Assembly (NCBI GenBank): GCA_038227435.1
Contig: JBBRPW010000001.1
Span: 9,632-73,631, forward strand
DNA: 64,000 nt
Direction of reading: 5' to 3'
Origin: Minisyncoccia bacterium
Lineage (GTDB): Bacteria > Patescibacteriota > Minisyncoccia > Phycocordibacterales > CALRBL01
Below the pieces are notes generated by a model. It was not told the origin of the DNA, ran no database searches, and saw nothing but the letters and a program-made list of their open reading frames with translations. The position numbers and the translations under genes are program-made. Positions 37,096-52,119 of this stretch are shown piece after piece; the first letter of the stretch is position 1; each line of letters begins with the position of its first letter.

Positions 37096-38592
37096 ATGTC
37101 CTTTGTTTTTAAAATAAATAAAAAACAACAAGCCTCTAAAGGATTCTTTTTACTTGGAATTTTAATTTTTGCTTCAATTTCAGCCCTCATGCTTGCGGCA
37201 GTAGTTCAAGGAGCAATCATAAACGTTAAATTAGCAAACAATGCAGTAGATAGAGAGCAGGCTTTTCATATTGCTGAATCGGGAGTTGAATACTATAGAT
37301 GGCATTTAGCGCACTATGCCACCGATTACAATGATGGAAATGGTTCTACATCAACCGGCCCCTATAATCACATTTTTTACAATAAAGTAGGAAAAGCAAT
37401 TGGCGTATACACATTAAATATTACTCCTCCTGTTTCGGGTTCAACTTTAGTTAATATTCAATCAAATGGCATATTAGAAAATGGCGCAAGTACAACGAGA
37501 AAAGTAAAAACTCAATTAGCTATTCCATCTTTGGCGAAATTTGCCGTAGCAGCAAATGATGATATGCGATTTGGAGAAGGAACTGTCGTATATGGTCCCA
37601 TTCACTCAAATCAAGGAATTCGATTCGATGGATTAACATATAATATTATTTCTAGTTCACTTTCTTCTTATAATGACCCAGATCACTCGGGAGCAGTTGA
37701 GTTCGGAGTTCACACTCACGTTATAGCACCGCCCGGCTCTGGTACATATTCAAATTTCGTTGCGGCCGAAGCGCCTGCTAGTAGTGTCCCATCTCGTACC
37801 GATGTTTTTAAAGCCGGTCGAATTTTTCCCGTTTCTTCAATTGATTTTACGGGTTTTACCACAGATCTCTCATCAATGAAGTCAAAAGCGCAAGCAAGCA
37901 GTTCATATTATGCCGCATCAGGAGGTCTTGGATATCGAATTGTACTCAAAATAAATGGGACGTATGACCTGTATAAAGTAAATACCCTAGTTAGTGCAAA
38001 TGCTAGTTGTAGTAATGGAGGTTCGGGTGATGCTACATGGGGAACATGGTCTATTGCAGCGAGTGGAGGAAGTCAAACTTACATAGGTAATTATAGTATT
38101 CCAAATAACAACGTGATCTTCCTAGAAGATAATTTATGGGTAGAGGGGCAAATTAGTAATAAGAGAATTACAATTGCTGCGGGTAAATTTCCAGATAATG
38201 TTGCAACAAGGCCATCAATTACGATAAATAATAATCTGCTCTATACGCTTTATGATGGGAGTGATGCTCTAGCTCTTGTTTCTCAGGGAGATGTGAACGC
38301 TGGACTAAATAGTTTAGATACACTACGAATAGACGGGGCGTTAATCGCTCAAAATGGCCGTGTTGGGCGCCATTATTACAATTCAAGTTGTGGAGCAGCA
38401 TATGTTCGAAACACCCTTACTTTATATGGAATGATTGCCACAAATCAACGATATGGATTTGCTTATACTGATGGAACTGGATATGACACTCGAGTAATTA
38501 CATACGACGGACATTTTTTATATGGCCCTCCTCCAAGTTTTCCTCTTACTTCAAATCAGTATCAAATTATTTCGTGGGAAGAGCTAAAATAG
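37096..38592 (+). CDS. Pilus-associated protein (PilX-like minor pilin candidate).
   Basis: N-terminal hydrophobic segment KGFFLLGILIFASISALMLAAV and its position in the pilus operon; weak. Confidence 0.4.
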   Translation: MSFVFKINKKQQASKGFFLLGILIFASISALMLAAVVQGAIINVKLANNAVDREQAFHIAESGVEYYRWHLAHYATDYNDGNGSTSTGPYNHIFYNKVGKAIGVYTLNITPPVSGSTLVNIQSNGILENGASTTRKVKTQLAIPSLAKFAVAANDDMRFGEGTVVYGPIHSNQGIRFDGLTYNIISSSLSSYNDPDHSGAVEFGVHTHVIAPPGSGTYSNFVAAEAPASSVPSRTDVFKAGRIFPVSSIDFTGFTTDLSSMKSKAQASSSYYAASGGLGYRIVLKINGTYDLYKVNTLVSANASCSNGGSGDATWGTWSIAASGGSQTYIGNYSIPNNNVIFLEDNLWVEGQISNKRITIAAGKFPDNVATRPSITINNNLLYTLYDGSDALALVSQGDVNAGLNSLDTLRIDGALIAQNGRVGRHYYNSSCGAAYVRNTLTLYGMIATNQRYGFAYTDGTGYDTRVITYDGHFLYGPPPSFPLTSNQYQIISWEELK

Positions 38593-38605
38593 GTATAATA
38601 GAAAG

Positions 38606-39589
38606 ATGAAGAAATCACCTAAACGATTAAAAAAGAAAACAGTTTCTCGTTCTAAAAATAAACCGAATAGGCGAAATAAAAAAAGTGAGCCGAAGAAGCA
38701 AAATAAGAAATCAAAAGTAAAGTCACCCGCAAAATCTATAAAAAAAGTTGTACAAACAAAAAATAAAGGAAAGTTATCGATTGAAACAAAAATTCCAGAA
38801 CTTTTAGTTGTTGCCAATTGGAAAATGAACCCAGCAACACTTGATGAAGCTAAAATGATTTTAAATACGACAAAACGAACTATCGCAACTCTTAAAAAGG
38901 AGCGGAAAGGAAATAATATGGGAATAGTACTTTGCCCACCGGCTGTTTTTTTTGGAGATATGAGAGGAAAAGTTGAAAATTCGAGGAATCAAAAAAATAA
39001 CAGTTCAATTTCATTTGGAGTACAAAATATTGGAATAGGAGAAACAGGATCATTTACGGGAGAAGTTTCAGCTGCTATCTCAAAGAGCGCCGGGGCACAA
39101 TATTCTATTGTGGGCCATTCTGAAAGACGAGCAATGGGGGAAACTAACGAAGCCGTTGCATTAAAAGTTGAGGCTGCATTAAGAGCTGAACTCATTCCAA
39201 TTATTTGTGTTGGAGAAGCAAAAAAAGATGAACAGGGATTATTTTTAATTGATTTTGAAAAACAAATTCGTATTGCTGTGTCACGAATTAAGCCAATTGA
39301 TATTGAAAGAATTGTTTTTGCATATGAGCCGCTCTATGCAATTGGCGCAGCACAGGCAGTAACTGCACATCAAATTTACGAGCGAAACGTGCTTATAAAA
39401 AAGATTTTGACCGACATGTACGGTAAAGAAAGAGCATTTAAAGTAAAGATTTTGTATGGAGGCTCAGTCGATGCATCAAATGCAATAGACATTGTATTTA
39501 ATGGAAATGCCGGAGGGCTTTTAATTGGTAGAGCTAGTATTAAACCTGAGGAATTCTCACAATTATTGAAAAATTTGAGTTCAAGATAG
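38606..39589 (+). CDS. tpiA: Triosephosphate isomerase with a roughly 65-aa Lys-rich N-terminal extension.
   Basis: LVVANWKMN...IVGHSERR...YEPLYAIG...GGSV core motifs. The extension MKKSPKRLKKKTVSRSKNKPNRRNKKSEPKKQNKKSKVK... is in the same frame with no stop. Confidence 0.85.
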   Translation: MKKSPKRLKKKTVSRSKNKPNRRNKKSEPKKQNKKSKVKSPAKSIKKVVQTKNKGKLSIETKIPELLVVANWKMNPATLDEAKMILNTTKRTIATLKKERKGNNMGIVLCPPAVFFGDMRGKVENSRNQKNNSSISFGVQNIGIGETGSFTGEVSAAISKSAGAQYSIVGHSERRAMGETNEAVALKVEAALRAELIPIICVGEAKKDEQGLFLIDFEKQIRIAVSRIKPIDIERIVFAYEPLYAIGAAQAVTAHQIYERNVLIKKILTDMYGKERAFKVKILYGGSVDASNAIDIVFNGNAGGLLIGRASIKPEEFSQLLKNLSSR

Positions 39590-39649
39590 AATAAGGAAGC
39601 AATAAAGAACCCATCAAGTTAAACTAAATTTAATCAAAACAATATTTAC

Positions 39650-40873
39650 ATGCCCGTTTCAATTAATGAAGCAATAGAGAAGAAATATATTACGATTGGA
39701 ACATACGTGTTGGTACGTGTTGATTTTAACGTATCGATGGATGGAAATACGGTTCGTGATGATTACCGAATTGCGCGGGCACTTCCCACTATTTTAGCCC
39801 TCACGAGTGCTGGCGCAAAAGTAATTTTAATAAGTCATATTGAATTAAGCGAATCTAAAAAACATGGATTAACTGCGGGGAAAAACGATGCCGATAAAAG
39901 TGCGGTGCCAAGCCTACAACCCGTATACGATTATATTAAAACAACATATCCAAAAGAGTTTAATCGATGTTATTTTGTACCTGATTTATTAAGTGAACAA
40001 GGTAAAAAACAAGTGTCACTGTTAAAAGAAGGCGAAATTATTTTAGCCGAAAATATTCGAATGTATGAAGGAGAAAAAAAGAACGACACTGATTTTGCAG
40101 CTGCGCTCGCTAGTTTAGCTACAGTATATGTGAATGATGCCTTCGCTGTGTCTCATCGAGCGCACGCTTCAGTGGTTGGAGTGCCAGCGCTTAAAGCATC
40201 AAATGAACGCTTTGCTGGTCTTTTACTTCAATCTGAAATTGAAGCACTTGACCCTTCAATTCAAAAACCTCGTCCATTTATATTTATCTTAGGAGGAGCG
40301 AAGTTTGAAACAAAACTCCCACTCATTACAAAATATTTAGATGTGGCCGACCATGTTTTTGTGGGAGGAGCACTTGCCAACGACTTATTTAAACTACAAG
40401 GAAATAACGTAGGAAATTCATTAGTATCAACAGATAAAAATATTGAAGAAAGCCTTCGTGAAATTTTAAAAAATAAAAAATTAATTATTCCTGAAGATGT
40501 TTTTGTACTATGCGGACAACATATCGAAATTAAACATCCGGAAGATGTTAAAGATGGTGAAAATATTTTAGATATTGGCCCCGAAAGTTTAGTGAAGTTC
40601 GAATCTTTATGTGAGAATGCTGGATACATTGTATGGAATGGCCCACTTGGTGATTACGAACGCGGTTTTGAATTTGGAACATTAATGCTTGCAAAAATTT
40701 TAGCAAATCTTAATCACAACAAAACACGGACAGTGGTTGGAGGAGGCGACACATTAGCGGCCATCAAAAAAGCCAACGTTTTCGATAAATTCGGCTTCGT
40801 TTCAACAGGAGGAGGAGCAATGCTCGAATACTTAGAGAAGGGAACCCTCGTGGGAGTTGAGGTGTTGAAATAG
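39650..40873 (+). CDS. pgk: Phosphoglycerate kinase.
   Basis: N- and C-terminal PGK motifs (ILISH..., GGGDTLAAI..., STGGGAMLEYLEG). Confidence 0.9.
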   Translation: MPVSINEAIEKKYITIGTYVLVRVDFNVSMDGNTVRDDYRIARALPTILALTSAGAKVILISHIELSESKKHGLTAGKNDADKSAVPSLQPVYDYIKTTYPKEFNRCYFVPDLLSEQGKKQVSLLKEGEIILAENIRMYEGEKKNDTDFAAALASLATVYVNDAFAVSHRAHASVVGVPALKASNERFAGLLLQSEIEALDPSIQKPRPFIFILGGAKFETKLPLITKYLDVADHVFVGGALANDLFKLQGNNVGNSLVSTDKNIEESLREILKNKKLIIPEDVFVLCGQHIEIKHPEDVKDGENILDIGPESLVKFESLCENAGYIVWNGPLGDYERGFEFGTLMLAKILANLNHNKTRTVVGGGDTLAAIKKANVFDKFGFVSTGGGAMLEYLEKGTLVGVEVLK

Positions 40874-40926
40874 GTGATTTAAAATCTATTTTTCTTTTTT
40901 GGGTAGGTGTGTAGTATTATTGATAT

Positions 40927-41676
40927 ATGTTTGAAAAATATCTTCAAGAATTAGGATTATCCGATAAGGAGGCAAGTGTATATATTTCACTTCTCCAGGT
41001 AGATAACGACTCAGTACTCGATTTGTCTAAAAAAACAAAAATTAATAGAACCACTATCTACCCAGTCCTTGAAAGCTTGGCCAAAAAAGGTCTTATTAGC
41101 GAAGCACAAGTTGATAAAAAGATTAGATATCACGCCGAACCACCCGAACGATTAGAAACATATGTTGAGCGGCAAAAAACAATGCTTCAAGAGCATTCAA
41201 ATCGATTAAAAGATGTAATTCCTCAGTTAAAAAGTATTCAGAGGGAAACTGGGGAAAAACCAATGGTTAAGTATTTTGAAGGTAGACAGGGTGCGATCAG
41301 TTCTCTTGAAGAGTTTTATAATTCAATCGGAAAAGGTGGCACTGCATATTTAATTTATCCAAAAGATGCAATAAAAAATATCTTCAATGAAAAAGAAATT
41401 GAAAAATATCGATCAATACGCCTTAAAAGGGAAATAAAGACAAAAGTAATAAGTACTTCGTCAAAAAACGACATAATTTCTGATTCAACAGGTAATCGAA
41501 TACAAATTGACGGAGAAAAGTATCCCATCACTTCGGATATTGCTATTTACGAAGATAAAGTAAGGGTTACTATTTTGGGGAAGTCTTTAGCAGCATTTTC
41601 AATAAAGAGTCAGGATCTTGCTGATACACTTCGTAGTTTATTTGATTTGGTATTTGATCTATCAAAAAATAAATAA
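40927..41676 (+). CDS. TrmB-family HTH transcriptional regulator.
   Basis: N-terminal LGLSDKEASVYISLL...INRTTIYPVLESLAKKGLI winged-helix region typical of TrmB. Confidence 0.6.
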   Translation: MFEKYLQELGLSDKEASVYISLLQVDNDSVLDLSKKTKINRTTIYPVLESLAKKGLISEAQVDKKIRYHAEPPERLETYVERQKTMLQEHSNRLKDVIPQLKSIQRETGEKPMVKYFEGRQGAISSLEEFYNSIGKGGTAYLIYPKDAIKNIFNEKEIEKYRSIRLKREIKTKVISTSSKNDIISDSTGNRIQIDGEKYPITSDIAIYEDKVRVTILGKSLAAFSIKSQDLADTLRSLFDLVFDLSKNK

Positions 41677-41696
41677 GAGACTTATATAATAAAAGA

Positions 41697-41738
41697 TACC
41701 CCGATCGCACAACGTGCTGCGATCGGGGTATTTGGTTT
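41697..41738 (+). terminator. Rho-independent terminator ACCCCGATCGCAcaacgtgcTGCGATCGGGGT + TTTGGTTT.
   Basis: 12-bp perfect GC-rich stem followed by a T-rich tail. Confidence 0.6.
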
Positions 41739-42326
41739 AGACCCCGTGGTCTTTTACTCCGAGAACGATAAGGTATTGCCCTTCGCGTTCTCGAACGATT
41801 TCATTGGCCTACCCCTCGGGGTAGAAAATAAGGTGTGTTTACTAGTCAGACATACTATTTTTCCTTCGGTCGGGGTTCTCTCTAACAAGGTTTGGATTTT
41901 GAGGACAGCTTTTAGCTACTAGTCCCAGCCAACAGCCGATTCGGGCGCTGTTGGCTGGGACTTTCACTTTCGGCTAGTCGCCCATATTACCTCCTTGTTA
42001 AGGTTCGGGAATCGTTCATAAGCAAGAGCGCTAATGAATTTCCAAATAAAATTTAGCATAATAAAATTGGTCTGTCAACATGTTTTAACTAAATTGAGTA
42101 TATTTGATCAATTTTATATAAAATAAGGCTATGAATATAGCTTCAATAGTGTTTTTACTTGTTATTGTCGGTTTTTGTGTTTTGACACCTGAAAAATACT
42201 ACAAAACAAATATTTTTTAATGCAATTAATGTAGTTTTATGTCATATCTAATTTACATATATTGTATATAATATCCTTATTTATCAATACTATAATGGAA
42301 TATTAAATTTAATCTGTCATAAACAC

Positions 42327-42354
42327 TTGACAAAAATATAAATATCCGTATTAT
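42327..42354 (+). promoter_or_regulatory. Sigma70-like promoter TTGACA-16 nt-TATTAT driving the island's + strand transcription.
   Basis: Consensus -35 and near-consensus -10 with 16-nt spacing, about 200 nt upstream of the first island ORF. Confidence 0.4.
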
Positions 42355-42478
42355 CTTTCTCAGTTAGAACTTTTCACCTCAACCCCCAAAGAACAATGCG
42401 TTACTACGTGCTCCCCGACGGGACCGTGGTGATCAACCCCTCTGACGCCTACTAAGGCGTTACGGGATGATCCCACTT

Positions 42479-42530
42479 CTGCGGCTTAGGCACGCGGGGG
42501 AATAATGCACCCTGGCAACAGAATCGCATC
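42479..42530 (+). repeat. Repeat family R1, copy a (CTGCGGCTTAGGCACGCGGGG...CCTGGCAACAGAAT), in the 5' leader of island ORF-A.
   Basis: A 21/21 identical block plus a 14-nt block shared with copy b at 43777-43828. Confidence 0.55.
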
Positions 42531-42561
42531 CACTAAAACATCACCCTAATTTTTTACAACT

Positions 42562-42843
42562 ATGAAAAAGATCGTGATCGGAATGATGGTCGTTCTCGCT
42601 CTACTCTTGTCGTTTGTTGCAGGTGTCTTCTACGGCACCAACGCAACTATCGCCAAGATGGAATTGCTGGAAACCCCCAGAGGCCGCATTCTTTACTACT
42701 TCATTCCGAATACATCTGCTTCGACAGAAATTTATTCGCTTGATAGTGGAGAAGATGCTGATCTCTACGAGGATTCAACACAAATTCCTGACGAAGACGT
42801 GACTGAGAGGAAAGACTCTCTGAAGGACGACACTAACCTTTAA
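42562..42843 (+). CDS. Island ORF-A: small membrane-anchored protein with an acidic C-terminal tail.
   Basis: 93-aa ORF. TM helix IVIGMMVVLALLLSFVAGVFYG. The last 14 codons and the stop lie inside repeat R2a. Confidence 0.4.
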   Translation: MKKIVIGMMVVLALLLSFVAGVFYGTNATIAKMELLETPRGRILYYFIPNTSASTEIYSLDSGEDADLYEDSTQIPDEDVTERKDSLKDDTNL

Positions 42844-42897
42844 TTCAAAAGTGTTTATTTTTGCGACCGTTTTAAATGGTTGGTTGGCGTGCAGCGC
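42801..42897 (+). repeat. Repeat family R2, copy a (97 nt), immediately upstream of HHR1.
   Basis: 94 of 97 positions identical to copy b at 45769-45866. Contains hairpin GAGAG-gaaaga-CTCTC. Confidence 0.7.
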
Positions 42898-42935
42898 TAA
42901 GAGAAAACTTTAAATCCTAACTATAAAAAGTTAGA

Positions 42936-42987
42936 TCTGTCTCGAAATGTAATTTCGACTGATGAGCTCTAGAGAGCGAAACAGAAA
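42936..42987 (+). ncRNA. Hammerhead ribozyme, type III topology (HHR1).
   Basis: TCTGTC|TCGAAATgtaATTTCGA-CTGATGA-GCTCtagaGAGC-GAAA-CAGA. All core nucleotides present (C3-A9, G12-A14, A15.1-U16.1, GUC cleavage triplet). Three stems fold as required. Confidence 0.75.
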
Positions 42988-43436
42988 GTACTTTAAAACC
43001 AAGAAAAATAATAAAAGTTAAATTCGTCTGCACTTGAGAGTGTTTTTAAAAATATTCTCACGTGCAGGCGAAAGTAGCGCCAAAGCATGTGATCGGTAGT
43101 ACACATTTAAATCTTGAGTGAGTGTCTCGGATTTAAGTGGAGTTGTACTACGTATTAATTCATCACCAAAAAAATGATTAGTGGGATGTTCTGATTGTTC
43201 TCGTACGCCTCGCGAGAGACCAACAGTCAAAATGTCACATCATTTGAGTAGGGACAAGCAGTTCGTTGCTGTGCACCGAACTTTGATGAATTATGGCTGT
43301 GAACGATCTGAGGTGAGTACCGCAAGGTAACTCAGTTTGATCTAGTAATAGTTATGGGGAAAGCGCATAAGGCTTGGTCGCCAAGTGTGTATTACCTGCT
43401 ACAAAATTTCTAAACCTCAACCAAAAAAGAATTACT

Positions 43437-43772
43437 ATGGCACATTACAGTACTTTTATTTTTCAGTTGCCAGGATGTCCCGAGATTTATATGAGTACTC
43501 GGTACAACATTATTCAGGACTTTGATTGCATTCGAAATAAGTTTGGAAAGGGGTTGATTAAGTTCAAACCTTTCTACAAGCCTGATCGAGTGCAATTTAC
43601 TCCTCCGAGTAATGGAGAAAAGCATCCTTGGGTATTGCTGACTAAATATCAGCGTAGGAAGATTCAAACCTTCCTCAATGTGGTCTACCGAAAGGGAAAC
43701 CACAGGGTACCTCGGAGATGGCGCAAGTTCGTAAAGAACGACGGCGTCTTTCCAAAGGAGTGTCTCGACTGA
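43437..43772 (+). CDS. Island ORF-B: small basic protein (R/K-rich C-terminus).
   Basis: 111-aa ORF from ATGGCACATTAC; no homologue recognised. Confidence 0.35.
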   Translation: MAHYSTFIFQLPGCPEIYMSTRYNIIQDFDCIRNKFGKGLIKFKPFYKPDRVQFTPPSNGEKHPWVLLTKYQRRKIQTFLNVVYRKGNHRVPRRWRKFVKNDGVFPKECLD

Positions 43773-43776
43773 GCAA

Positions 43777-43828
43777 CTGCGGCTTAGGCACGCGGGGTAC
43801 ACATACTACCTGGCAACAGAATTGTATG
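43777..43828 (+). repeat. Repeat family R1, copy b. It follows the ORF-B stop and precedes HHR2.
   Basis: Shares CTGCGGCTTAGGCACGCGGGG and CCTGGCAACAGAAT blocks with R1a. Confidence 0.55.
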
Positions 43829-43857
43829 AAACTGACTAGTAATTATTTACTAGTCAC

Positions 43858-43909
43858 TCTGTCTCGAAATGTAATTTCGACTGATGAGCTCTAGAGAGCG
43901 AAACAGAAA
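43858..43909 (+). ncRNA. Hammerhead ribozyme, type III (HHR2), 52/52 identical to HHR1.
   Basis: Same sequence as HHR1, preceded by the 9-bp palindrome GACTAGTAA-ttat-TTACTAGTC. Confidence 0.75.
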
Positions 43910-44304
43910 TACATTAAAAATAAAATAATTTCTTTACACCTCATCCGGCGTTTATTTGCGGCACGAAAATAACCACGCAAACAAAAAATGTGGAAACCCG
44001 CTAGACGCTGGTTGAGGTGTAATGAACAAAAAATATAGGTTGCTAGTTAACCTGATCCGAGGAGCTCTGGTTTTCCATAAGGAAAACTAAAACTTTCGGG
44101 CTTTAGTGGGGCAAGCAACGTAACGCCGGATGCGTACGTGTGAGGCCAAAAGCACAAAAACTACTTGTTTGCCCAGCTATCGGGGAATAAGCGTCGTTCG
44201 TGGTACGGCGTTATGAGCATAAGTATCAAAATCTCCGAAGCCATTCGCCCTTAAGGGTGAAATGGTTCTAGTGAGGAATTTTGAGAACGTTCTCTAACAA
44301 CCAC
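43910..44304 (+). ncRNA. Roughly 395-nt ORF-free, highly structured spacer between HHR2 and HHR4. Candidate large structured RNA of unknown class.
   Basis: Long-range inverted repeats TTACACCTCA/TGAGGTGTAA and CATCCGGCGTT/AACGCCGGATG. Local hairpins GTTTTCC-ataa-GGAAAAC and CCATTCGCCC-ttaa-GGGTGAAATGG. No ORF over 40 codons on the + strand. Confidence 0.35.
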
Positions 44305-44357
44305 TTTGTTTATCGATGTGTTTCGATACTGAAGAGCTCAAAAGAGCGAAACAGAAG
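44305..44357 (+). ncRNA. Hammerhead-like ribozyme variant (HHR4): CTGAAGA core (position 7 = A), GUU cleavage triplet, short stem III.
   Basis: TTTGTT|TATCGAtgtgttTCGATA-CTGAAGA-GCTCaaaaGAGC-GAAA-CAGAAG. Position 7 is tolerant and U17 is permitted but weaker. Confidence 0.5.
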
Positions 44358-44393
44358 ATCTTTAAATTTCAGCAACTTCAACCCCCTAAAAAA

Positions 44394-44699
44394 ATGCAAA
44401 ACCCATATGGTTCGGAGAAGCAGTTGGAAACCACCGAACAGCAGATCGACCGCCGTGTCGCGCTCAGTGTCCTCGAAGTGAGCTACCATTTTTGGGGCGC
44501 ACTTCGGGGTGGTGGCGAACGGGCCGCTGCGAACCTTTTGAACAGTTTGAAAGGTGCAGCACCACGCGGCTACTACTTCACTGTCTCGGCAGATAGGGAG
44601 TGGCGTCCGCGTGCAAACAAAGACGGAACGTTCGAGTTCCGCCGCCTGTTTCAGCCCCGAACCAACACTGTCGCCATCATCGGATTGGCAAGACGATAG
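44394..44699 (+). CDS. Island ORF-C: hypothetical protein.
   Basis: 101-aa ORF starting at ATGCAAAACCCA, directly downstream of HHR4. Confidence 0.35.
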   Translation: MQNPYGSEKQLETTEQQIDRRVALSVLEVSYHFWGALRGGGERAAANLLNSLKGAAPRGYYFTVSADREWRPRANKDGTFEFRRLFQPRTNTVAIIGLARR

Positions 44700-44719
44700 T
44701 GCCGGAAGGGTTGAAACAC

Positions 44720-44830
44720 ACGTTAAGAGTCACCGTAAAAAACTCTGGTCTGATCCACTAACAACGATCACTCGTTTATCGTATGCGAGCTTCAAAAAAC
44801 GTTCGGGTCCGCCCGTGATAGCGGCGTCGG
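44720..44830 (+). repeat. Repeat family R3, copy a (about 110 nt), followed by hairpin GGGGAAtttatTTCCCC.
   Basis: About 93% identical to copy b at 46431-46540. Some differences are compatible with conserved pairing (AACGA/TCGTT versus AATGA/TTGTT). Confidence 0.65.
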
Positions 44831-44916
44831 TAGGGGAATTTATTTCCCCACTTTATTGAGCCTGTCACATTCGGTGATTGGTTCATCAAGTTCGTTCTTT
44901 TCAAAAAAATAAAAAT

Positions 44917-45330
44917 ATGAAACTTAACGTCAAGGCTATCCGTAGTTTTGTGCTTAGTCAGGTAGTGGACAAGGAAGAGTCAGAAGCACTCATCTTTTAT
45001 TTGGCTGGCATCAATGCCGAATTCTATCTCGTAGATCCTCACACCTGCGGAGAAGAAGCAGGAGAGATTGGCTTCATGGGTTTCAACTTCACCGACAAGG
45101 TGAATGATGCAATGAATGCTGGTCTTTGGGCTGTGATTTACGACGATGGGCGCGATTATGCTTACCATAAGTACTTCCTTTTCGAGGAAGACGCTAAAAG
45201 TTTTGCAAATCGGGTTGGTGGAGGCTTATTGAAGTACACCAACACTGCAAATCGGCTGAAAGTTATTGCCCACTTTAGAAAGTTGGGCTTAATCGAAGAA
45301 GTTCCTGAAGAAGAAGGAATTCTCGAATAA
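44917..45330 (+). CDS. Island ORF-D: hypothetical acidic protein.
   Basis: 137-aa ORF from ATGAAACTTAAC. Confidence 0.4.
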   Translation: MKLNVKAIRSFVLSQVVDKEESEALIFYLAGINAEFYLVDPHTCGEEAGEIGFMGFNFTDKVNDAMNAGLWAVIYDDGRDYAYHKYFLFEEDAKSFANRVGGGLLKYTNTANRLKVIAHFRKLGLIEEVPEEEGILE

Positions 45331-45463
45331 CTTTAAGTCAATTCATATACGTTCTGCATAACGTAAAAAATGTAGCTGTTTTGCTCAATATGCGTGCAAG
45401 AAATTGCATGTCGACATATTGGCTTCTTCAGTGAAAAAAGAAGGTAAGAAAGGAGGATCAACA

Positions 45464-45760
45464 ATGATCATCGACCTTTCTCTTCGTAATGAGCGCCTGT
45501 ACAAGGGTTGCGAAATTACGGAGGTGGCAGGCCGGCTGAACTTGGTTACTCCAGTTGCTGATGCAGTTAATATCGTTGGCCGCAACGCCAATGGGTTGAT
45601 TGCAGAAGTTGCTGCGAGTGATCGGAGCGAAGTCGAGCTTACGGGTCCGATGGCGGTTTGGTCTTACTTGATCGTTTTCCACGCTGTGGTTCACGCCTTT
45701 TCGAAGGTGTACTACAACGATGGGAAAGGTCGGGTACTGATCGCCGCCCACGGCGCCTGA
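45464..45760 (+). CDS. Island ORF-E: hypothetical protein preceded by a strong Shine-Dalgarno.
   Basis: AAAGGAGGatcaacaATG gives a canonical SD at optimal spacing. 98-aa ORF (MIIDLSLRNERLYKG...). Native genes in this window generally lack an SD. Confidence 0.5.
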   Translation: MIIDLSLRNERLYKGCEITEVAGRLNLVTPVADAVNIVGRNANGLIAEVAASDRSEVELTGPMAVWSYLIVFHAVVHAFSKVYYNDGKGRVLIAAHGA

Positions 45761-45768
45761 TGCCATCT

Positions 45769-45866
45769 GACTGAGAGGAAAGACTCTCTGAAGGACGACA
45801 CTAACCTTTAATTCAGAAGTGTCTATTTTTGCGACCGTTTTAAATGGTTGGTTGGCGTGCATCGCT
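45769..45866 (+). repeat. Repeat family R2, copy b, non-coding here, immediately upstream of HHR3.
   Basis: Near-identical to R2a. Confidence 0.7.
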
Positions 45867-45890
45867 GACGGATAGATGTTCTATCCGTCA

Positions 45891-45942
45891 TCTGTCACAG
45901 GGTATTACCTTGTCTGATGAGTTCAAAAGAACGAAACAGAAG
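45891..45942 (+). ncRNA. Hammerhead ribozyme, type III (HHR3), a sequence variant of HHR1/2.
   Basis: TCTGTC|ACAGGGTattACCTTGT-CTGATGA-GTTCaaaaGAAC-GAAA-CAGAAG. Full conserved core. Preceded by hairpin GACGGATAG-atgtt-CTATCCGTC. Confidence 0.7.
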
Positions 45943-45970
45943 ATCTTTCAAAACTCCACAAATAATTTTT

Positions 45971-46204
45971 ATGAATAATCATTCGAAAGAATTGGTATGT
46001 GTTCGAGTGATTAATGTATGCGCATCCATTAAAGGCTCTTTTGGATTAGGTCACTTTATAAAAGTCGATCTGTCTGGAGTCAGTGATTGGTATATATACT
46101 GCTCAAAAACTAAACCAATTGTCGGACAAGAAATTTCCATGTTTCTTACTATGTACGGCAAATGGACATGTCTCGATGACAGAGACAATGTCGAATCATT
46201 TTAG
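45971..46204 (+). CDS. Island ORF-F: small Cys-containing hypothetical protein directly downstream of HHR3.
   Basis: 77-aa ORF from ATGAATAATCAT. Confidence 0.3.
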   Translation: MNNHSKELVCVRVINVCASIKGSFGLGHFIKVDLSGVSDWYIYCSKTKPIVGQEISMFLTMYGKWTCLDDRDNVESF

Positions 46205-46430
46205 TCGAATTAAAACCCTATGATCAACATCATCAAATCTACTCGCTATAAGGTGAGTGGCTTCATTCGTAACTGCGTTAAAAACCCTCGCACGAGCTGG
46301 AAGCTGCGGAAGCAATTGGCTTCTCGCAGCATGCGTCGCCTCGATCGAAAGGTGATCGCTGCAACGGATGTTGAGGAGCATTCGTCGTGTGTCGTATACA
46401 ATAACTTCCTGGGCTATCCGTAGCAAGGAA

Positions 46431-46540
46431 ACGTTAAGAGTCAACGTAAAAAACTCTGGTCTGATCCACCAACAATGATCACTTGTTTATCGTATGCGAG
46501 CAACAAAAAACGTTCGGGTCCGCCCGTAATAGCGGCGTGG
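46431..46540 (+). repeat. Repeat family R3, copy b, ending at the island's terminal terminator.
   Basis: See R3a. Confidence 0.65.
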
Positions 46541-46542
46541 TT

Positions 46543-46570
46543 AAGAGGAACATCAGTTCCTCTTTTTTTA
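46543..46570 (+). terminator. Rho-independent terminator AAGAGGAAcatcagTTCCTCTT + T8.
   Basis: 8-bp stem followed by a T run. Confidence 0.6.
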
Positions 46571-46615
46571 TTTCTAAATCAAATTAAGTTAAAATTTATA
46601 AACCTACTTATTAAT

Positions 46616-47053
46616 TTATTTATCGAGCTCTGAAATTATTTTTTGAGCAATATCTTCTTTTTCTCCATCTTTATAAATAATATGTTCACCATATCTCATA
46701 CTCACTCCTTTATAACGAGGGATTAAATGTGCGTGTATATGTAATATTTCCTGGCCTCCATATGAGCGATTGTTAATGAGTAGATTTACTCCATCAAGTT
46801 TAAGAGCATTCTCTAAAACGTTTGCCACCCTTTTAACTCCTTTCATCATTGTTCCAAAAAGTTCTGTGTCGATCTGAAATATGTCGTCAGCATGTGTTTT
46901 TGGAATAATAATTGTATGTCCTAAGGCAAGAGGATTAATATCGAGGAATACAAAGACATCTGCGTCTTCATAAAGCTTTGTTGTGTTAACTTCTCCTGTA
47001 ATCATTTTGCAAAAGATGCAATCTTTATGGGTTAATTCGTTATTCATGGCCAT
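46616..47053 (-). CDS. HIT-family (histidine triad) nucleotide hydrolase.
   Basis: HIHAHLIP histidine triad motif. Confidence 0.85.
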   Translation of the reverse strand: MAMNNELTHKDCIFCKMITGEVNTTKLYEDADVFVFLDINPLALGHTIIIPKTHADDIFQIDTELFGTMMKGVKRVANVLENALKLDGVNLLINNRSYGGQEILHIHAHLIPRYKGVSMRYGEHIIYKDGEKEDIAQKIISELDK

Positions 47054-47093
47054 ATTTTAACACGTATACGGGCTAGCATGATACAATCTTTTC

Positions 47094-48995
47094 ATGTTTT
47101 CAGTACTACCTGGTATTCCAGAACAAGATTCTGCACGAAATGAATTAGCAAAATATAGCGATAGAATAAAACACCTGCTTTATCATAGAGGCATTAAAAC
47201 TGCCAAAGAGGCACAACATTTTTTGGACCCGGTATATGAGCATAATCATGATCCGATGTTGATGTCGGGCATGAAAAAAGCTACTGAACGTTTTTTACAC
47301 TCAATTGATACAAACGAACATATTGTAATTTATAGTGATTACGATGCTGATGGAATTCCTGGTGCAGTTGTGCTCGCCAGTTTCTTAAAGAGAATTGGTT
47401 ACACTAATTTTTCACACTATATACCTGACAGACACCTTGAAGGATTTGGTGTAAACATGGGAGCGATCGATGAAATAATTTATAGAGCAAAAATACATGA
47501 AATTCCGCATACTTTTTTATTAATTACCATCGACTGTGGAATATCAGATGTCGAACCAATTCAAAAAGCTAAAGATTTGGGAATCGATGTAATTATCACT
47601 GATCATCATATGCCTGGGAGTATTTTTCCTGCTGCATATGCCATTGTTAATCCCAAAATAAGTATTCAAGAGCAACAGGTATCTCCAAAAAAAGCAAAAA
47701 ATACAGAAGAATTAATTTATCCCTTCAATATGCTTTCAGGATCCGGTGTAATTTTTAAGTTTGTTCAAGGATTAATGTTACTCCGTGATTTTAGTGATAA
47801 AGGTTTTAAACCTGGCCATGAAAAATGGTTACTTGATATGGTGGGTATTGCAACAATGTCTGACATGGTTCCTTTAATTGGAGAAAACCGAATTTTTGCT
47901 CACTTCGGTTTGAAAGTATTGCGTAAATCTCCTCGAATTGGTTTGCAAACACTTCTTTCAAAACAGAAAATTGATCAACGCTACATTAACGAAGAAGATA
48001 TTGGATTTAGTATTTCTCCTCGTATAAATGCTGCGTCAAGAATGGGAAAAGCCGATAAAGCCCTTGAATTATTTTTGACCGATGATGAGTCGAAGGCATT
48101 AGAACTTTCAATTTATTTGCAGAAGTTAAACGATGAGCGTAAGGGATATGTTGCAGCTATTGTGAAAGATTTGAAAAAGCACCTAGAGGATGACCTTCTA
48201 GCTTCCGATAATTCAGACATTCCAAAATGTATTATTGTAAAAGGAAATCCCGATTGGAGACCATCACTTTTAGGACTAGCAGCAAATAGTTTAATTGAGC
48301 AATATAAATGCCCAGTATTTTTATGGGGGCGTGGAGAAGGAGGGACTATTATTAAGGGTTCTTGTAGAACTTATGTAACTGAAGGCATGAATGGGCATAT
48401 GAGTTTGGTTAATTTGATGCATAAAGCTGAAGAAATTTATAGCACTGAGCAGATTAAGAAAATCAAAAAAATAGATAAAGAAAAAATAGAAGAAATTAAA
48501 AAATTATTTCTTCATTGTGGAGGTCATGCAATGTCTGGGGGATTTGCTGTCGACCATGAACACATTCATCTCCTTCCTGAATATTTAGAAAAAGCAGTTA
48601 AATTTTATGCAAAAGATTTTTTAAATGAAAAAAACAATATTTCGAATGTACTCAAAGCCGATCTTGAATTAACACTCGATGAAATCGATATGCGTCTTTA
48701 TAATGAAATTTCGCAACTTGCACCATTTGGGGTAGGGAATCAAAAACCACTTTTACTCATTAGAAATGTGATTCCACAAGAAGTTCGTCAATTTGGTAAA
48801 GCTAAGGAACACTTTGAAATGAGTGCTCGAAATGGAAAAGGTCGCACGATAAAAATGCTTTGTTTTTTTGCGAAACCTGAAGATTTTCATGTTGTACCCG
48901 ATGTATTAAAACCTGTTTCAATTGTCGGGCACATTGAGCACTCTCGTTTTTTGGGAAAAAGTGAAATTAGGCTTAGATTGGTCGAAGTCTTCTAA
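47094..48995 (+). CDS. recJ: Single-stranded-DNA-specific exonuclease RecJ.
   Basis: DHH motifs (YSDYDADGI, ITDHH) and DHHA1 domain (GGGHAMSGG). Confidence 0.9.
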   Translation: MFSVLPGIPEQDSARNELAKYSDRIKHLLYHRGIKTAKEAQHFLDPVYEHNHDPMLMSGMKKATERFLHSIDTNEHIVIYSDYDADGIPGAVVLASFLKRIGYTNFSHYIPDRHLEGFGVNMGAIDEIIYRAKIHEIPHTFLLITIDCGISDVEPIQKAKDLGIDVIITDHHMPGSIFPAAYAIVNPKISIQEQQVSPKKAKNTEELIYPFNMLSGSGVIFKFVQGLMLLRDFSDKGFKPGHEKWLLDMVGIATMSDMVPLIGENRIFAHFGLKVLRKSPRIGLQTLLSKQKIDQRYINEEDIGFSISPRINAASRMGKADKALELFLTDDESKALELSIYLQKLNDERKGYVAAIVKDLKKHLEDDLLASDNSDIPKCIIVKGNPDWRPSLLGLAANSLIEQYKCPVFLWGRGEGGTIIKGSCRTYVTEGMNGHMSLVNLMHKAEEIYSTEQIKKIKKIDKEKIEEIKKLFLHCGGHAMSGGFAVDHEHIHLLPEYLEKAVKFYAKDFLNEKNNISNVLKADLELTLDEIDMRLYNEISQLAPFGVGNQKPLLLIRNVIPQEVRQFGKAKEHFEMSARNGKGRTIKMLCFFAKPEDFHVVPDVLKPVSIVGHIEHSRFLGKSEIRLRLVEVF

Positions 48996-49028
48996 ATTCG
49001 CTAGAATAAGCCTATAAACAATTATTAT

Positions 49029-49853
49029 ATGGCACACGTTATAATTTTTACGGATGGATCAGCTCGAGGAAATCCAGGAAACGGTGGATGGGGCGCTGTT
49101 TGCGTCTATCCAAAATCAAGTGGAGAATTGCGTGTAGATGAGCTCGGCGGGGCTTCAGCATATACGACTAATAATCAAATGGAGCTCACCGCAGCAATTG
49201 AAGGCTTAAAAAACTTCAACAATTTTTATAATGATAACAAACTTAATACCACTAATGACGCCGAATCAGTTTTTTACACAATTTATACAGATTCTGCCTA
49301 TGTAATTAATGGAATTACAAAGTGGGTCTATGGTTGGCAGCAAAATGGCTGGATAACAAGCACAAAGCAAGAAGTTTCTAATCGCGATTTGTGGGAAGCA
49401 CTGCTCGAGCAAATTTCAAATAAAGAAGTTGATTGGAAATATGTAGGAGGCCATATTGGAATTGCTGGAAACGAAAGATGCGATCAAATTGCCACAGAAT
49501 TTGCCGACACAATTTTAAAAGGAGAGGCTGACTTAGCTCTTATTCAACTGTATAAAGGATCGTTGGTTGGTTATCCTATTAAAGTGTTAAATACAGAAAC
49601 CGGAGAATTAATTTTGGATGAAGACGGAGGAAGTAAAAGCGGTGGGAGCGCTGAAAAGAAAGCTAAAGCAAAGGAACGATCAAAAATTGCTGCATATTCA
49701 TATGTAAGTATGGTCAATGGAAAAATTGAGACTCATAAAACATGGGCAGAATGCGAAAAGAGGGTAAAAGGAGTAAAGGGGACACGTTTTAAGAAAGCGA
49801 TTTCAAAAAATGATGAGGATGAAATAAAGAAAGACTTTAGTTCAAATAATTAA
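49029..49853 (+). CDS. rnhA: Ribonuclease HI with a C-terminal extension resembling the RNase H1 / caulimovirus-VI hybrid-binding domain.
   Basis: RNase H core TDGSARGNPG...ELTAAIEGL...YTDSAY...GHIGIAGNERCDQ. The tail AAYSYVSMVNGKIETHKTWAECEKRVKGVKGTRFKKAISKNDEDE fits the HBD consensus. Confidence 0.85.
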   Translation: MAHVIIFTDGSARGNPGNGGWGAVCVYPKSSGELRVDELGGASAYTTNNQMELTAAIEGLKNFNNFYNDNKLNTTNDAESVFYTIYTDSAYVINGITKWVYGWQQNGWITSTKQEVSNRDLWEALLEQISNKEVDWKYVGGHIGIAGNERCDQIATEFADTILKGEADLALIQLYKGSLVGYPIKVLNTETGELILDEDGGSKSGGSAEKKAKAKERSKIAAYSYVSMVNGKIETHKTWAECEKRVKGVKGTRFKKAISKNDEDEIKKDFSSNN

Positions 49854-49910
49854 TCAGTACTTTATCTGTTCTTAAGTAAAATATAACCTTCCTTATTTCA
49901 TAATCTCTAT

Positions 49911-51557: not shown

Positions 51558-52119
51558 GATTTTCAAAAAAAGCTTCAACATATTTCTTTTTTTCTGAAGG
51601 AACGAAGTCGAGCATGTATGAATGTTCCCACATATCAATTCCTAAAACAAAAGTTAGTCCATTTAATTGTCCTTCGTGCTGTTCTCCAATCCAATTATTT
51701 ACAAGTTTTTTCTGAATAGGATCATAACAAAGCACAGCCCATCCAATTCCTCTCGTCATTGCAATTGCTTTAAACCGAGTAAACCAAGCATCAAATGATC
51801 CCCACTCTGCCACAATTGCTGCATGCAGTGAATGTGCTTCTGTAAGCATATTCGCTCCACCTTCTAAGTTCTCAAAGTAATATTCATGATTTCGCATTCC
51901 ATCGAATTCAAATCCAAATCGTCTTTGTAGTTCTCCAAGTACATACATATTTTTTTCTGCACTTTCAGCGTCAGCAGATAATTCCTTAATCTTTTCAAGA
52001 ATTAAGTTTGTATGTTTTACGTATCCTCCATACAGTTTTGTATGTTCATCTATTGTCTTAGTGCTAATTCCTTTTAATTCTAGAATATTAAATTTTTTTT
52101 GTTCGTATGGTGTTGTCAT
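51508..52119 (-). CDS. sodA: Fe/Mn superoxide dismutase.
   Basis: HHxxHH-type N-terminal region and C-terminal DMWEHSYMLDF motif. Confidence 0.9.
   Translation of the reverse strand: MTTPYEQKKFNILELKGISTKTIDEHTKLYGGYVKHTNLILEKIKELSADAESAEKNMYVLGELQRRFGFEFDGMRNHEYYFENLEGGANMLTEAHSLHAAIVAEWGSFDAWFTRFKAIAMTRGIGWAVLCYDPIQKKLVNNWIGEQHEGQLNGLTFVLGIDMWEHSYMLDFVPSEKKKYVEAFFENLNWEVSEKRFQSGNLA

Follow-up and report, generated by a model that had tools for sequence, protein, structure and literature searches.

A folded RNA element not listed before, present twice in a hammerhead-containing island

The window, by which we mean the whole 64 kb stretch of DNA that was analysed, contains an island (42327..46564, + strand) that is probably a single transcription unit, starting with a promoter-like site (TTGACA-16-TATTAT) and ending with an intrinsic terminator at 46543-46564. 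Its GC content is 41-47% compared to ~35% in the surroundings, and it holds four hammerheads, about seven small ORFs and a number of RNA modules present in more than one copy. The island is a mosaic of shuffled modules in which R2, D3 and D5 each occur twice and hammerhead HHR1 is close to HHR2. The first ORF considered here, ORF-A (42562..42843, + strand; 93 aa), has a hydrophobic N-terminal segment and is an orphan, with no homologue but itself among 5.8 billion proteins. The second, ORF-E (45464..45760, + strand; 98 aa), starts at an ATG at 45464 with GGAGG ahead of it, stops at a TGA at 45758-45760, and belongs to a family of more than 700 proteins of ~98 aa. ORF-E matched the PADLOC model of Csx3 weakly (E 3.4e-4), and its best Foldseek match was 6yud (Csx3/Crn3), with a probability of 0.98 but an E-value of 0.012 and a TM-score of 0.41; no sequence match was found in Pfam or the PDB.

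A repeat finder run on the window identified a direct repeat of 99 nt, with R2a at 42800-42898 and R2b at 45768-45866, that is 97% identical. An earlier note on this DNA had described a near-identical repeat with three differences, and this holds with a length of 99 nt rather than 97. The mismatches are A/G at 42848, T/C at 42855 and G/T at 42894. Identity between the copies starts and ends sharply, with flanks that cannot be aligned, and the 64 kb window contains exactly two occurrences of a 31-nt core of R2, where shuffles gave an expectation of 0.

Motif copies were delimited by the repeat and a covariance model at 42799..42898 for R2a (96.5 bits) and 45767..45866 for R2b (99.1 bits), both on the + strand, and their helices were checked base by base. 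Across 17 copies the fold comprises four helical elements: P1, an H-type pseudoknot (S1 of 6 bp, S2 of 5 bp and an A-rich third loop), P3 and P4. In R2a these are P1 (42805-42809/42816-42820, loop GAAAGA), S1 (42821-42826/42837-42842), S2 (42829-42833/42851-42855), P3 (42864-42868/42878-42882) and P4 (42886-42889/42895-42898, loop UGCAG), and in R2b they are P1 (45773-45777/45784-45788), S1 (45789-45794/45805-45810), S2 (45797-45801/45819-45823), P3 (45832-45836/45846-45850) and P4 (45854-45857/45863-45866). All three mismatches between the copies are neutral to this structure, falling in L3, in a pair of S2 (G-U versus G-C) and in the P4 loop, and on the 3' side their identity stops precisely with the final pair of P4. 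D5, the other 3' module of the island, has a conserved loop, UGGCAACAGAAU, to which the P4 loop (GGCAGAA) is similar.

The 17 copies come from the window, one Parcubacteria genome and metagenomes, the majority from short contigs, and a search of the viral contigs of IMG/VR returned 0 copies. A pattern scan of metagenomes gave 29 loci, and ~15 further copies were confirmed by nhmmer and the covariance model; the search pattern held 21 bases fixed and thus makes the 5' part look more conserved than it is. Compensatory changes are present in every helix. For the 5' domain of 15 sequences, 97.8% of cells were paired compared to 83.0% in shuffles and 31-48% in slid controls, 8 pairs had changed on both sides, and 0 of 500 shuffles were as high as the observed value on any measure, a significance that is overstated by the shuffle test since the sequences are interrelated. 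S1 (columns 23-28/39-44) was 100% paired with two pairs changed on both sides, and S2 (columns 31-35/53-57) was 96% paired with four of its five pairs so changed; 0 of 500 shuffles matched the observed values for S1 and S2. Thus, two interleaved helices each carry compensatory changes, as an H-type pseudoknot should. RNAalifold independently recovered P1, S1 and P3, with S1 pair 23-44 being C-G in 7 sequences and U-A in 6, and P3 pair 73-93 being C-G in 8 and U-A in 7. Compensatory variants of S1 include GGAGG/CCUCC in L001b and AAAGG/CCUUU in L070, where pair 24-43 is A-U; P3 and P4 also covary, with P3 occurring as CCGAC/GUCGG and UCACC/GGUGA. The hairpin GAGAG-GAAAGA-CUCUC of the earlier note proved to be helix P1 of the family, which is GAUG/CAUC in most relatives. 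Its proposed long-range pairing of ACUAACC with GGUUGGU did not survive: ACUAACC sits in S2, L2 and S1 of the pseudoknot, and GGUUG partners CGACC in P3, covarying while the ACUAACC region stays unchanged. Because of its G-U pairs, the fold is specific to the + strand. About 15 unpaired nucleotides are conserved as well, in L3 (CAGAAG), the AUUGUUG joint, the P3 loop (GUAAAU) and the P4 loop (GCAG).

Comparison with Rfam 15 gave no family at gathering score anywhere in the window and no model overlapping R2 at E<=1 within 38000-52000. When R2 was used as a 161-nt query the best matches were noise (MAT2A_C, 16.6 bits with 47 required; SAM, 13.8 bits with 44.4 required), and the long-form relative L058 likewise had no Rfam match. 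At one motif locus, L071, a DUF3800 gene and a DUF3800-IX RNA lie 1.7 kb downstream. R2a and R2b represent a folded RNA element that had not been listed before, and R2 constitutes a new RNA family, although its general kind is known.

We also considered if the repeat is maintained as protein or as DNA. ORF-A enters R2a in the sole frame left open by the UGAs and ends within it, as VTERKDSLKDDTNL*, so that its last 14 codons and its stop (UAA, 42841-42843) come from R2a, whereas the TGA of ORF-E lies 7 nt before R2b; the ORF coordinates thus bear out what had been claimed for both copies. The ORF-E family ends in ...AAHG(A)*, with an HG(A) end in 32 of 32 aligned members, so ORF-E ends where its family natively ends and R2b is its 3' UTR. 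This matches the Parcubacteria genome L001, where an ORF-E homologue (79% identical) is followed directly behind its stop by an R2 homologue (65-75% identical), then a hairpin, then a hammerhead. Among R2 homologues, indels of +2 nt in P1 and +1 nt in L2 break every reading frame and keep the pairing, and substitutions in S2 alter the amino acid and preserve the pair. The kept frame and synonymous bias of a protein-coding C-terminal module are not seen in R2, and the frame open past the UGA is anywhere between 6 and 64 codons long. Together, the family end, the frame-breaking indels and the compensatory changes confirm that conservation of R2 is at the RNA level and is not protein-driven. We give next to no credence to the alternative that R2 encodes a C-terminal module of which R2b is a pseudogenised or read-through extension of ORF-E: the R2b peptide frame is in line with that of ORF-E past TGA TGC CAT, and L056 and L058 have long open frames across the motif (53 and 64 codons), but frames vary among homologues and UGA is a stop in the source genome, where the standard code gives 83% coding density. 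The frame-breaking indels refute this reading.

A DNA-level or neutral origin, as an attC-like cassette site, a DGR TR/VR pair or a functionless recent duplication, would fit the mosaic of shuffled modules, the exact coincidence of repeat and module boundaries, and the presence of one copy in a C-terminus and the other in non-coding sequence, as in a VR/TR pair. However, neutrality is ruled out by compensatory changes over at least 12 distinct loci, and strand-specific G-U pairs and conserved loops argue for RNA. The mismatches (A/G, T/C, G/T) are not the adenine-specific changes of a DGR, no YxDD reverse-transcriptase motif is present in ORFs of at least 150 aa in the 64 kb window, and R2a and R2b do not qualify as a TR/VR pair; moreover, a Pfam scan of the neighbouring genes revealed no integrase adjoining the island. 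This reading is largely refuted, and we regard it as extremely improbable.

The 5' edge of the motif is conserved as C-UGA-C-UGA, which closes two reading frames together, and the third frame closes 27-54 nt deeper into the motif. In 8 copies the first UGA is the exact end of long ORFs, which come from five unrelated protein families. ORF-E, its L001 homologue and the L049 and L061 genes stop 5-17 nt ahead of the motif, and L001b, the only copy behind a non-coding RNA, has no upstream ORF and lacks the CUGACUGA edge. Most copies read UGAcUGAUGG, placing an AUG 4 nt past the stop, and a spacer of ~18 nt that holds a hairpin separates the UGA from S1. An arrangement of UGA-C, hairpin and H-type pseudoknot could suggest read-through, stalling or coupled re-initiation, for which the use of the motif's UGA and following C by eight upstream genes, the AUG behind it and an A-rich L3 like that of viral recoding pseudoknots would speak. 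Yet the frame past the UGA is unconserved, indel-shifted and soon shut, the AUG is missing from the window copies, UGA and S1 are ~18 rather than ~8 nt apart, and the genes that stop early, together with L001b, do not use the embedded UGA. R2 thus lacks the conserved extension ORF and short fixed spacer of programmed read-through, and control of recoding or termination appears highly unlikely as its role.

Downstream of R2a lies a type III hammerhead, HHR1 (42934..42987, + strand; Rfam 40.3 bits, E 6e-6), with predicted cleavage after C42941, and downstream of R2b lies hammerhead 4 (45889..45942, + strand; 40.1 bits, E 7e-6), with predicted cleavage after C45896. The pattern CTGANGAG-N(8-30)-CGAAAC matched four times in the island against 0.04 expected, so that the three hammerheads counted earlier become four with the addition of a CUGAAGA/GUU variant at 44303-44357 (23.8 bits). 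In all four the type III core is intact, the cleavage triplet is GUC (or GUU) and loops close stems I and II; stem II is short, stem III is 4 bp, and their scores (40.3, 41.9, 40.1 and 23.8 bits; E 2e-6 to 2e-3) lie below the RF00008 gathering score of 48.5 bits. A hairpin, CUAACU-AUAAAA-AGUUAG (42917..42934, + strand), stands between R2a and its hammerhead, and a 10-bp hairpin, GACGGAUAGA-UGU-UCUAUCCGUC (45867..45889, + strand), abuts both P4 of R2b and hammerhead stem III; such direct contact with P4 is found in R2b, L001a and L001b. From the end of R2 it is 35 nt (R2a) or 22 nt (R2b) to the hammerhead and 43 or 30 nt to the predicted cleavage site.

The earlier note had placed R2 on a processed 3' end, in keeping with its position upstream of predicted hammerhead cleavage both here and in the Parcubacteria relative. 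Other parts of that picture need revision. The distance to the hammerhead, taken to be fixed at ~40 nt, is 22-35 nt in the window and ~90 nt in L058 and L042 (core ~190 nt past the motif start). Further copies are not always followed by a hammerhead: a hairpin and type III hammerhead lie within 200 nt downstream in 7 of 17, and in most of the remaining copies a conserved long hairpin (Unit U) fills the hammerhead's place. Nor does R2 appear to be a module that carries a hammerhead along, since identity stops at P4, the two intervening hairpins are unrelated in sequence, and the hammerheads behind R2a and R2b are 68% alike over 63 nt, compared to 92% for HHR1 and HHR2. That hammerhead and long hairpin share one slot hints that they do the same job.

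Conserved motifs in hammerhead-rich settings have repeatedly proved to be ribozymes (PMC6765202, PMC5737381), and R2 could be a new self-cleaving or otherwise catalytic class like twister-sister, pistol or hatchet. In its size, pseudoknot and ~25 conserved nucleotides it is like a typical small ribozyme, its home is a set of hammerhead-rich islands, and over half of the copies lack a hammerhead in their vicinity. A second cutter would, however, be redundant in the seven copies with an intact-looking hammerhead no more than 200 nt downstream, other complex motifs of the same search type did not cleave (PMC5737381), and no Rfam ribozyme model matched; we consider catalysis quite improbable.

From the sequence we propose, as a reading about equally apt to be right or wrong, that R2 is a conserved ~100-nt pseudoknotted cis-acting 3'-end domain, acting on the + strand, that closes a cistron in a ribozyme-punctuated operon. 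R2b would be the older copy, behind ORF-E as in the Parcubacteria homologue, and R2a a recent copy or gene-conversion product into which the orphan ORF-A runs; R2a would then seem to supply a protein C-terminus because of where it was placed. With ribosomes ending at the edge of the domain, pseudoknot and downstream processing element might fold undisturbed. The predicted cuts after C42941 and C45896 would leave R2 and the clamp hairpin as the 3' end of the upstream RNA, bearing a 2',3'-cyclic phosphate, and the retained R2 may shield it against 3' exonucleases and/or serve as a landing site for a factor that recognises the conserved loops. This protective or insulating role is one that we infer solely from position. 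Ribosomes translating ORF-A would open P1 and the 5' strands of S1 and S2, and so R2a may work differently.

A simple stabiliser needs no ~15 conserved unpaired nucleotides, which points to a more specific partner or activity. Such nucleotides, within a complex pseudoknot fold that always has a processing or termination element right behind it, would also suit a riboswitch-like or protein-binding domain controlling that element (hammerhead folding, long hairpin, termination) or the next cistron, and the likeness of the P4 loop to the D5 loop would fit a shared binding partner. We judge such a sensor or binding platform rather unlikely: no protein family common to all motif-bearing loci was found, the motif lies outside 5' UTRs, alternative pairing with the hammerhead is not evident, and two unrelated kinds of element lie downstream. 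Bolder still, and distinctly unlikely, would be an R2 that is no passive 3' end but an active RNA, be it a new self-cleaving class or a switch coupling termination at the embedded UGA to processing, and that forms with hammerheads and Unit U a modular RNA-processing grammar of Patescibacteria anti-defence islands; as all hammerheads share one stem III, such a grammar might even yield circular RNAs.

The purpose of bacterial hammerhead islands has been a standing question since 2011 (PMC3088659, PMC6765202), and the literature searched contained no report of hammerhead biology in Patescibacteria. R2 adds a new piece to this still unexplained biology, as a covariation-backed partner element that ties together three testable things: the upstream gene's stop codon, a pseudoknotted domain and a cleavage site. 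The motif can be used to locate such islands in Patescibacteria, and S1 and S2 offer clear disruptive and compensatory mutants, ready for assays of stability, processing or cleavage.

In viral recoding pseudoknots, e.g. that of MuLV gag-pol read-through, the pseudoknot lies behind a stop codon, is of the H type and has an A-rich loop 3. R2 is alike in these features and in its UGA-C context, but differs in its ~18 nt hairpin-holding spacer, lack of a conserved downstream frame and bacterial host. At phage T7 RNase III sites and in REP-type 3' stabilisers, which are plain hairpins, the upstream message keeps the structure at its 3' end. A structure left there after intercistronic cleavage is what we propose for R2, which in contrast is pseudoknotted, with four helices and conserved loops, and would have a ribozyme as its cutter.

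The closest setting is that of Perreault et al. 2011 (PMC3088659), in which multiple hammerheads flank single genes in bacterial prophage-like regions. Common to both are several hammerheads in the same orientation that cut a polycistronic RNA into gene-length pieces (predicted here) and small variable genes, sometimes anti-defence (ardA there, a Csx3-like gene here). That study reports no conserved structured domain ahead of its hammerheads. The hammerheads here are of type III, have a stem III that is short and uniform (CUG/CAG) and always have a hairpin ahead, and the host is a Patescibacteria-type chromosome, with no motif copy in IMG/VR. The orphan motifs DUF3800-I to XI, drum and skipping-rope of Weinberg et al. 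2017 (PMC5737381), which came out of searches around ribozyme- or DUF3800-associated genes, are likewise highly conserved, pseudoknotted or multi-stem RNAs, often with a terminator on the 3' side and some tied to upstream genes. None of their models matched R2, which is set apart by abutting a same-strand stop codon and being followed by a hammerhead or long hairpin.

The window is bacterial chromosome, encoding triosephosphate isomerase, phosphoglycerate kinase, a TrmB-type regulator, a HIT protein, RecJ, RNase H and ComEC together with four tRNAs, at a GC content of about 35%. Between the TrmB and HIT genes lies an island of 41-47% GC with all features on the + strand, a strong promoter-like site (42327-42354, +) and a terminator (46543-46564, +). 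It contains four hammerhead ribozymes (HHRs), each with a hairpin directly 5' of it, about seven small ORFs with no match in Pfam, two non-coding stretches of about 400 nt between hammerheads, and the repeats R2, D3 and D5. Two of the small ORFs, 43437-43772 and 46220-46423, code for basic proteins. A phage origin was rejected: blastn gave no match among 50,697 phage records, two pattern scans of IMG/VR for the R2 motif returned chance matches only, and no island ORF had a match in PHROG. We also observed a GC-rich, hairpin-rich segment of 250 nt (41740-41990) that separates the TrmB-gene terminator from the AT-rich island promoter region; a 20-bp hairpin (~41923-41963) lies within it, and it has no match in Rfam.

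R2 is a direct repeat of 99 nt (R2a, 42800-42898; R2b, 45768-45866) with 97% identity in the repeat finder, the copies differing at three positions (42848 A/G, 42855 T/C and 42894 G/T). A core of 31 nt is present at exactly two places in the window compared to zero expected from shuffles, and pairwise alignment of the two contexts showed a sharp start and end of identity, with unrelated flanks. Type III hammerheads follow R2a (HHR1, 42934-42987, +) and R2b (45889-45942, +); both score 40 bits (E near 1e-6), below the Rfam gathering score of 48.5, and have an intact core. Cleavage is predicted after C42941 in HHR1 and after C45896 in the hammerhead behind R2b. The fourth hammerhead (44303-44357, +) combines a CUGAAGA core with a GUU cleavage triplet and has one G-U pair in stem III; its Rfam score is as low as 23.8 bits, and wider scans did not pick it up. 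The earlier note had described a fixed spacing of about 40 nt from R2 to the hammerhead; the measured gaps are 35 nt and 22 nt and are filled by two unrelated hairpins. Nor is there support for R2 as a module that carries a hammerhead along, as had been suggested: the hairpins and hammerheads 3' of R2 were not copied with it, and HHR1 shares 92% identity with HHR2 but only 68% with the hammerhead behind R2b.

R2a is entered by ORF-A (42562-42843, +), a 93-aa orphan that found no relative besides itself in the protein search and whose C-terminus, ...VTERKDSLKDDTNL followed by the stop, lies within the repeat. R2b follows the 98-aa ORF-E (ATG at 45464 with a GGAGG Shine-Dalgarno, TGA at 45758-45760, +), which stops 7 nt 5' of the repeat. 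Over 700 proteins in the collection belong to the ORF-E family, nearly all of them 96-100 aa long, and because 32 of the 32 aligned members end in ...AAHG or ...AAHGA, we judge the ORF-E stop to be native and R2b to be 3' UTR. The peptide frame of R2b is in register with ORF-E beyond the TGA, most simply a one-in-three coincidence since the standard genetic code fits the window, with 50 ORFs of at least 150 aa giving 83% coverage and four of the 50 stopping at TGA. That coverage and the HG(A) ends of the family led us to reject TGA as a sense codon extending ORF-E into R2b. Furthermore, R2 homologues are separated by indels of 2 nt (in helix P1) and 1 nt (in pseudoknot loop L2), which break all reading frames. 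These indels, and an ORF-E family that ends before R2, bear out the earlier proposal that conservation of R2 is not protein-driven. A DGR TR/VR pair was also rejected for R2a and R2b.

A Parcubacteria contig (L001/L002) encodes an ORF-E homologue, 79% identical, in a homologous island with four hammerheads; straight after the stop of the homologue comes a diverged R2 copy, then a hairpin and a hammerhead. We take R2b to be the older window copy because it occupies the same place as this one. A search pattern from blocks common to both species (CTGACTGA...GAAAGAC...GAAGGA), whose 21 fixed bases are conserved by construction, found at least 29 metagenome loci, about half of them true homologues according to nhmmer and a covariance model. 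With the covariance model a further copy came to light on the Parcubacteria contig (L001b, 1207-1313); it has diverged more than the first, sits at the tail of a non-coding RNA and again has a hairpin and a hammerhead behind it. Only two proteins were recruited through ORFs spuriously predicted over the motif, and one of them yielded a new copy (L070). We counted 17 R2 copies in at least 12 distinct loci. The motif has no match in Rfam 15, lax filters on short inputs included. R2 as a general companion of ORF-E was rejected: among 30 ORF-E loci checked in a genome scan, only the Parcubacteria contig has R2 downstream of the homologue, and L034 and L039 have a D5-type module. A shared protein partner was likewise rejected, as all-against-all BLAST of the ORFs from 13 loci gave no family common to all.

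One fold is found in all copies. It opens with P1, a hairpin of 4-5 bp with the loop GGAAAGAC, and S1 (YGAAGG/CCUUYR) begins immediately 3' of it. Because S2 (5 bp) has its 5' strand within the S1 loop and its 3' strand beyond an A-rich linker (..CAGAA), S1 and S2 form an H-type pseudoknot. In R2a, S1 corresponds to 42821-42826/42837-42842 and S2 to 42829-42833/42851-42855. After S2 come a conserved joint (AUUGUUG), P3 (5 bp, with a loop ending in GUAAAU and an inserted hairpin in some copies) and P4 (4 bp, loop UGCAG or GGCAGAA). Variable inserted hairpins were cut by hand before MAFFT alignment of the cores. Across 15 distinct 5' domains, standard pairs fill 97.8% of pair cells compared to 83.0% when shuffled, and 8 of 15 pairs show two-sided changes. 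None of 500 shuffles reached the observed value on any measure, a significance inflated by the mutual relatedness of the aligned sequences; with partners slid by 1-3 columns as a control, 31-48% were paired. RNAalifold, run without input structure, recovered P1, S1 and P3, including an extra S1 pair, 23-44 (C-G in 7, U-A in 6 and U-G in 2 sequences), and the P3 pair 73-93 (C-G in 8, U-A in 7). Covariation across the set is also seen in P3 and P4. In L001b both strands of S1 change together, to GGAGG/CCUCC, as they do in L070, to AAAGG/CCUUU; the pseudoknot is therefore favoured over an alternative CUUC/GAAG pairing, which is broken in L001b. Every helix can form in both window copies, the G-U pairs among them being possible on the + strand only. 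Their three mismatches fall in loop L3, in an S2 pair (G-U vs G-C) and in the P4 loop, which is consistent with the fold, three sites alone being no proof. Folding z-scores of R2 alone are only -1.3 to -1.4, and the pseudoknot is invisible to minimum-free-energy folding. Mainly because R2 has conserved unpaired nucleotides, we retain other readings of this fold: that it is a sensor or binding platform, which we consider unlikely, or a new ribozyme, which is distinctly more doubtful.

We also noted that pseudoknot loop L3 (..ACAGAAG) is, in all copies, identical in sequence to the 3' strand of hammerhead stem III (GAAACAGAAG; 45839-45866 against 45937-45945), and that the D5 loop likewise contains ACAGAA. 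A released 3' tail ..UCUGUC could pair with an ACAGAA-type loop; the match may be fortuitous, ACAGAAG being present in copies that lack a hammerhead as well.

An unusual feature of R2 is that the stop codon of the upstream gene lies inside the motif. The conserved 5' start, C-UGA-C-UGA, places a stop in two frames, and in eight copies the first UGA is itself the stop codon of a long ORF (60-175 codons), with five unrelated protein families represented among the eight. The ORF ends 5-17 nt short of the motif in four more copies: R2b, the first Parcubacteria copy, L049 and L061. The third frame is open for 27-54 nt, and because ORF-A enters R2a in this frame it gains 14 extra residues. In L001b, the only copy behind a non-coding RNA, this edge is absent and the P1 loop differs. 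The unpaired nucleotides also keep in view a recoding signal at this boundary, which we regard as the least probable of these three readings. The limits of the repeat coincide with the first UGA at the 5' side and the last P4 pair at the 3' side, and R2a and R2b are 97% identical compared to about 70% across species; this identifies the RNA domain itself as what was copied or homogenised.

At the 3' side, a hairpin and then a hammerhead follow at most 200 nt downstream in 7 of the 17 copies: two in the window, two on the Parcubacteria contig, and those of L058/L071, L042 and L043, a contig that ends inside the ribozyme. Most other copies have in the hammerhead slot Unit U, a conserved hairpin pair of the form GGAGAAG...CUUCUCC, then ACUUUAUUSAG-hairpin-UUS'AUAGAG, in which S and S' covary, being C-G or G-C about equally often. 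The first hairpin is often GGAGAAG..UUGGUUA..CUUCUCC, and S/S' pairing produces a long hairpin, irregular and of about 17-20 bp. Unit U is found at 44833-44900 in the window, at L001:1783-1870 and 3516-3590, L039:~2455-2530, L050:6245-6330 and L070:~421-495, and in L049, L054, L056, L059, L060 and L061. It lies 3' of a 3' module and 5' of the next-cistron leader, and has no Rfam match; candidates for its role are an RNase III-type site, a terminator and a ribozyme of a new sort. Hammerhead and Unit U alike are followed by a similar leader, first U-rich and then A-rich, and by the next cistron. The leader, RWUCUUUMAAAA (GUUCUUUCAAAAA in L001), precedes an ORF or non-coding RNA at 42988-43000, 44358-44395, 45943-45973 and 44891-44916, and after every hammerhead in L001; several ORFs have a CAACYUCAACCCCC-A-rich leader upstream in place of a Shine-Dalgarno.

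D5 (51 nt; 42479-42529 and 43777-43827 in the window, L039:~2420-2450, L034:~2390-2425) is a hairpin with a conserved 17-nt loop, UGGCAACAGAAU (..YUGGCAACAGAAU..), and without a match in Rfam. Its stem covaries among four loci (AUGC/GCAU, CAUAC/GUAUG, GCGAC/GUCGC and CGCAU/AUGCG). At 43777-43863 D5 stands between a stop codon and a hairpin with hammerhead, and a D5-type module follows the close ORF-E homologues of L034 and L039. Because D5 thus occupies R2's place, we read R2 as one of several interchangeable 3' modules. D5 also precedes Unit U at some sites, behind stop codons. D3, a non-coding repeat of 113 nt (44720-44832 and 46431-46543, 92% identical), is followed by Unit U in one copy and by the island terminator in the other; among the fetched loci it has no homologue except on the same organism's contig L040.

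With the fold of R2, its strand, its position between stop codon and processing element and the predicted cleavage sites established, we give an even chance to R2 being a structured 3' end left by cleavage. Ribosomes would stop at its edge, where a UGA in the ribosomal A site would open P1 and not S1; the pseudoknot, P3, P4, the clamp hairpin and the ribozyme would then be free to fold. After cleavage, the upstream RNA would keep R2 as a structured 3' end, which would either protect that RNA or be recognised by a factor.

The non-coding stretches bracketed by hammerheads are 330-500 nt long (42988-43437 and 43910-44300; L001:821-1330, 2328-2660 and 2723-3190), and each opens with a long near-perfect hairpin (43023-43072 in the window, UCUGCAC...GUGCAGG). 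One stem III (UCUG/CAGA) is common to all hammerheads of both islands; therefore cleaved 3' and 5' ends could pair in any combination, and circular or re-ligated RNAs are conceivable.

The ORF-E family (loci L003-L031) spans Patescibacteria, Acidobacteriota, Deltaproteobacteria and others. The best fold match to the AlphaFold model of ORF-E (pLDDT 95.6), a weak one, is the cA4 ring nuclease Csx3/Crn3; E is 3.4e-4 with the PADLOC model for Csx3, and in L021 and L029 the next gene is CRISPR-associated in appearance, its translation judged by eye. ORF-E is possibly an anti-defence ring nuclease. If it is Csx3/Crn3-like, the island would be an anti-defence island, like the hammerhead region with the anti-defence gene ardA (PMC3088659), which we offer only as a lead.

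Several hammerheads flanking single genes are known from prophage-like regions (PMC3088659), and the purpose of this arrangement is still unexplained (PMC6765202); our literature search found no report of hammerheads in Patescibacteria. Thus the hammerhead arrangement is already known, and the R2 domain is absent from Rfam. R2 is similar in character to the orphan complex motifs known from the vicinity of ribozyme- or DUF3800-associated genes (PMC5737381), and one R2 locus has a DUF3800 gene and a DUF3800-IX RNA. In L071, a longer version of L058, the DUF3800 gene is followed by this RNA on the other strand (2173-2921; 46.2 bits vs a gathering score of 36.8), 1.7 kb downstream of the motif copy and hammerhead. 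We accordingly file R2 as a structured RNA of ribozyme-rich islands, kin in general kind to those orphan motifs.
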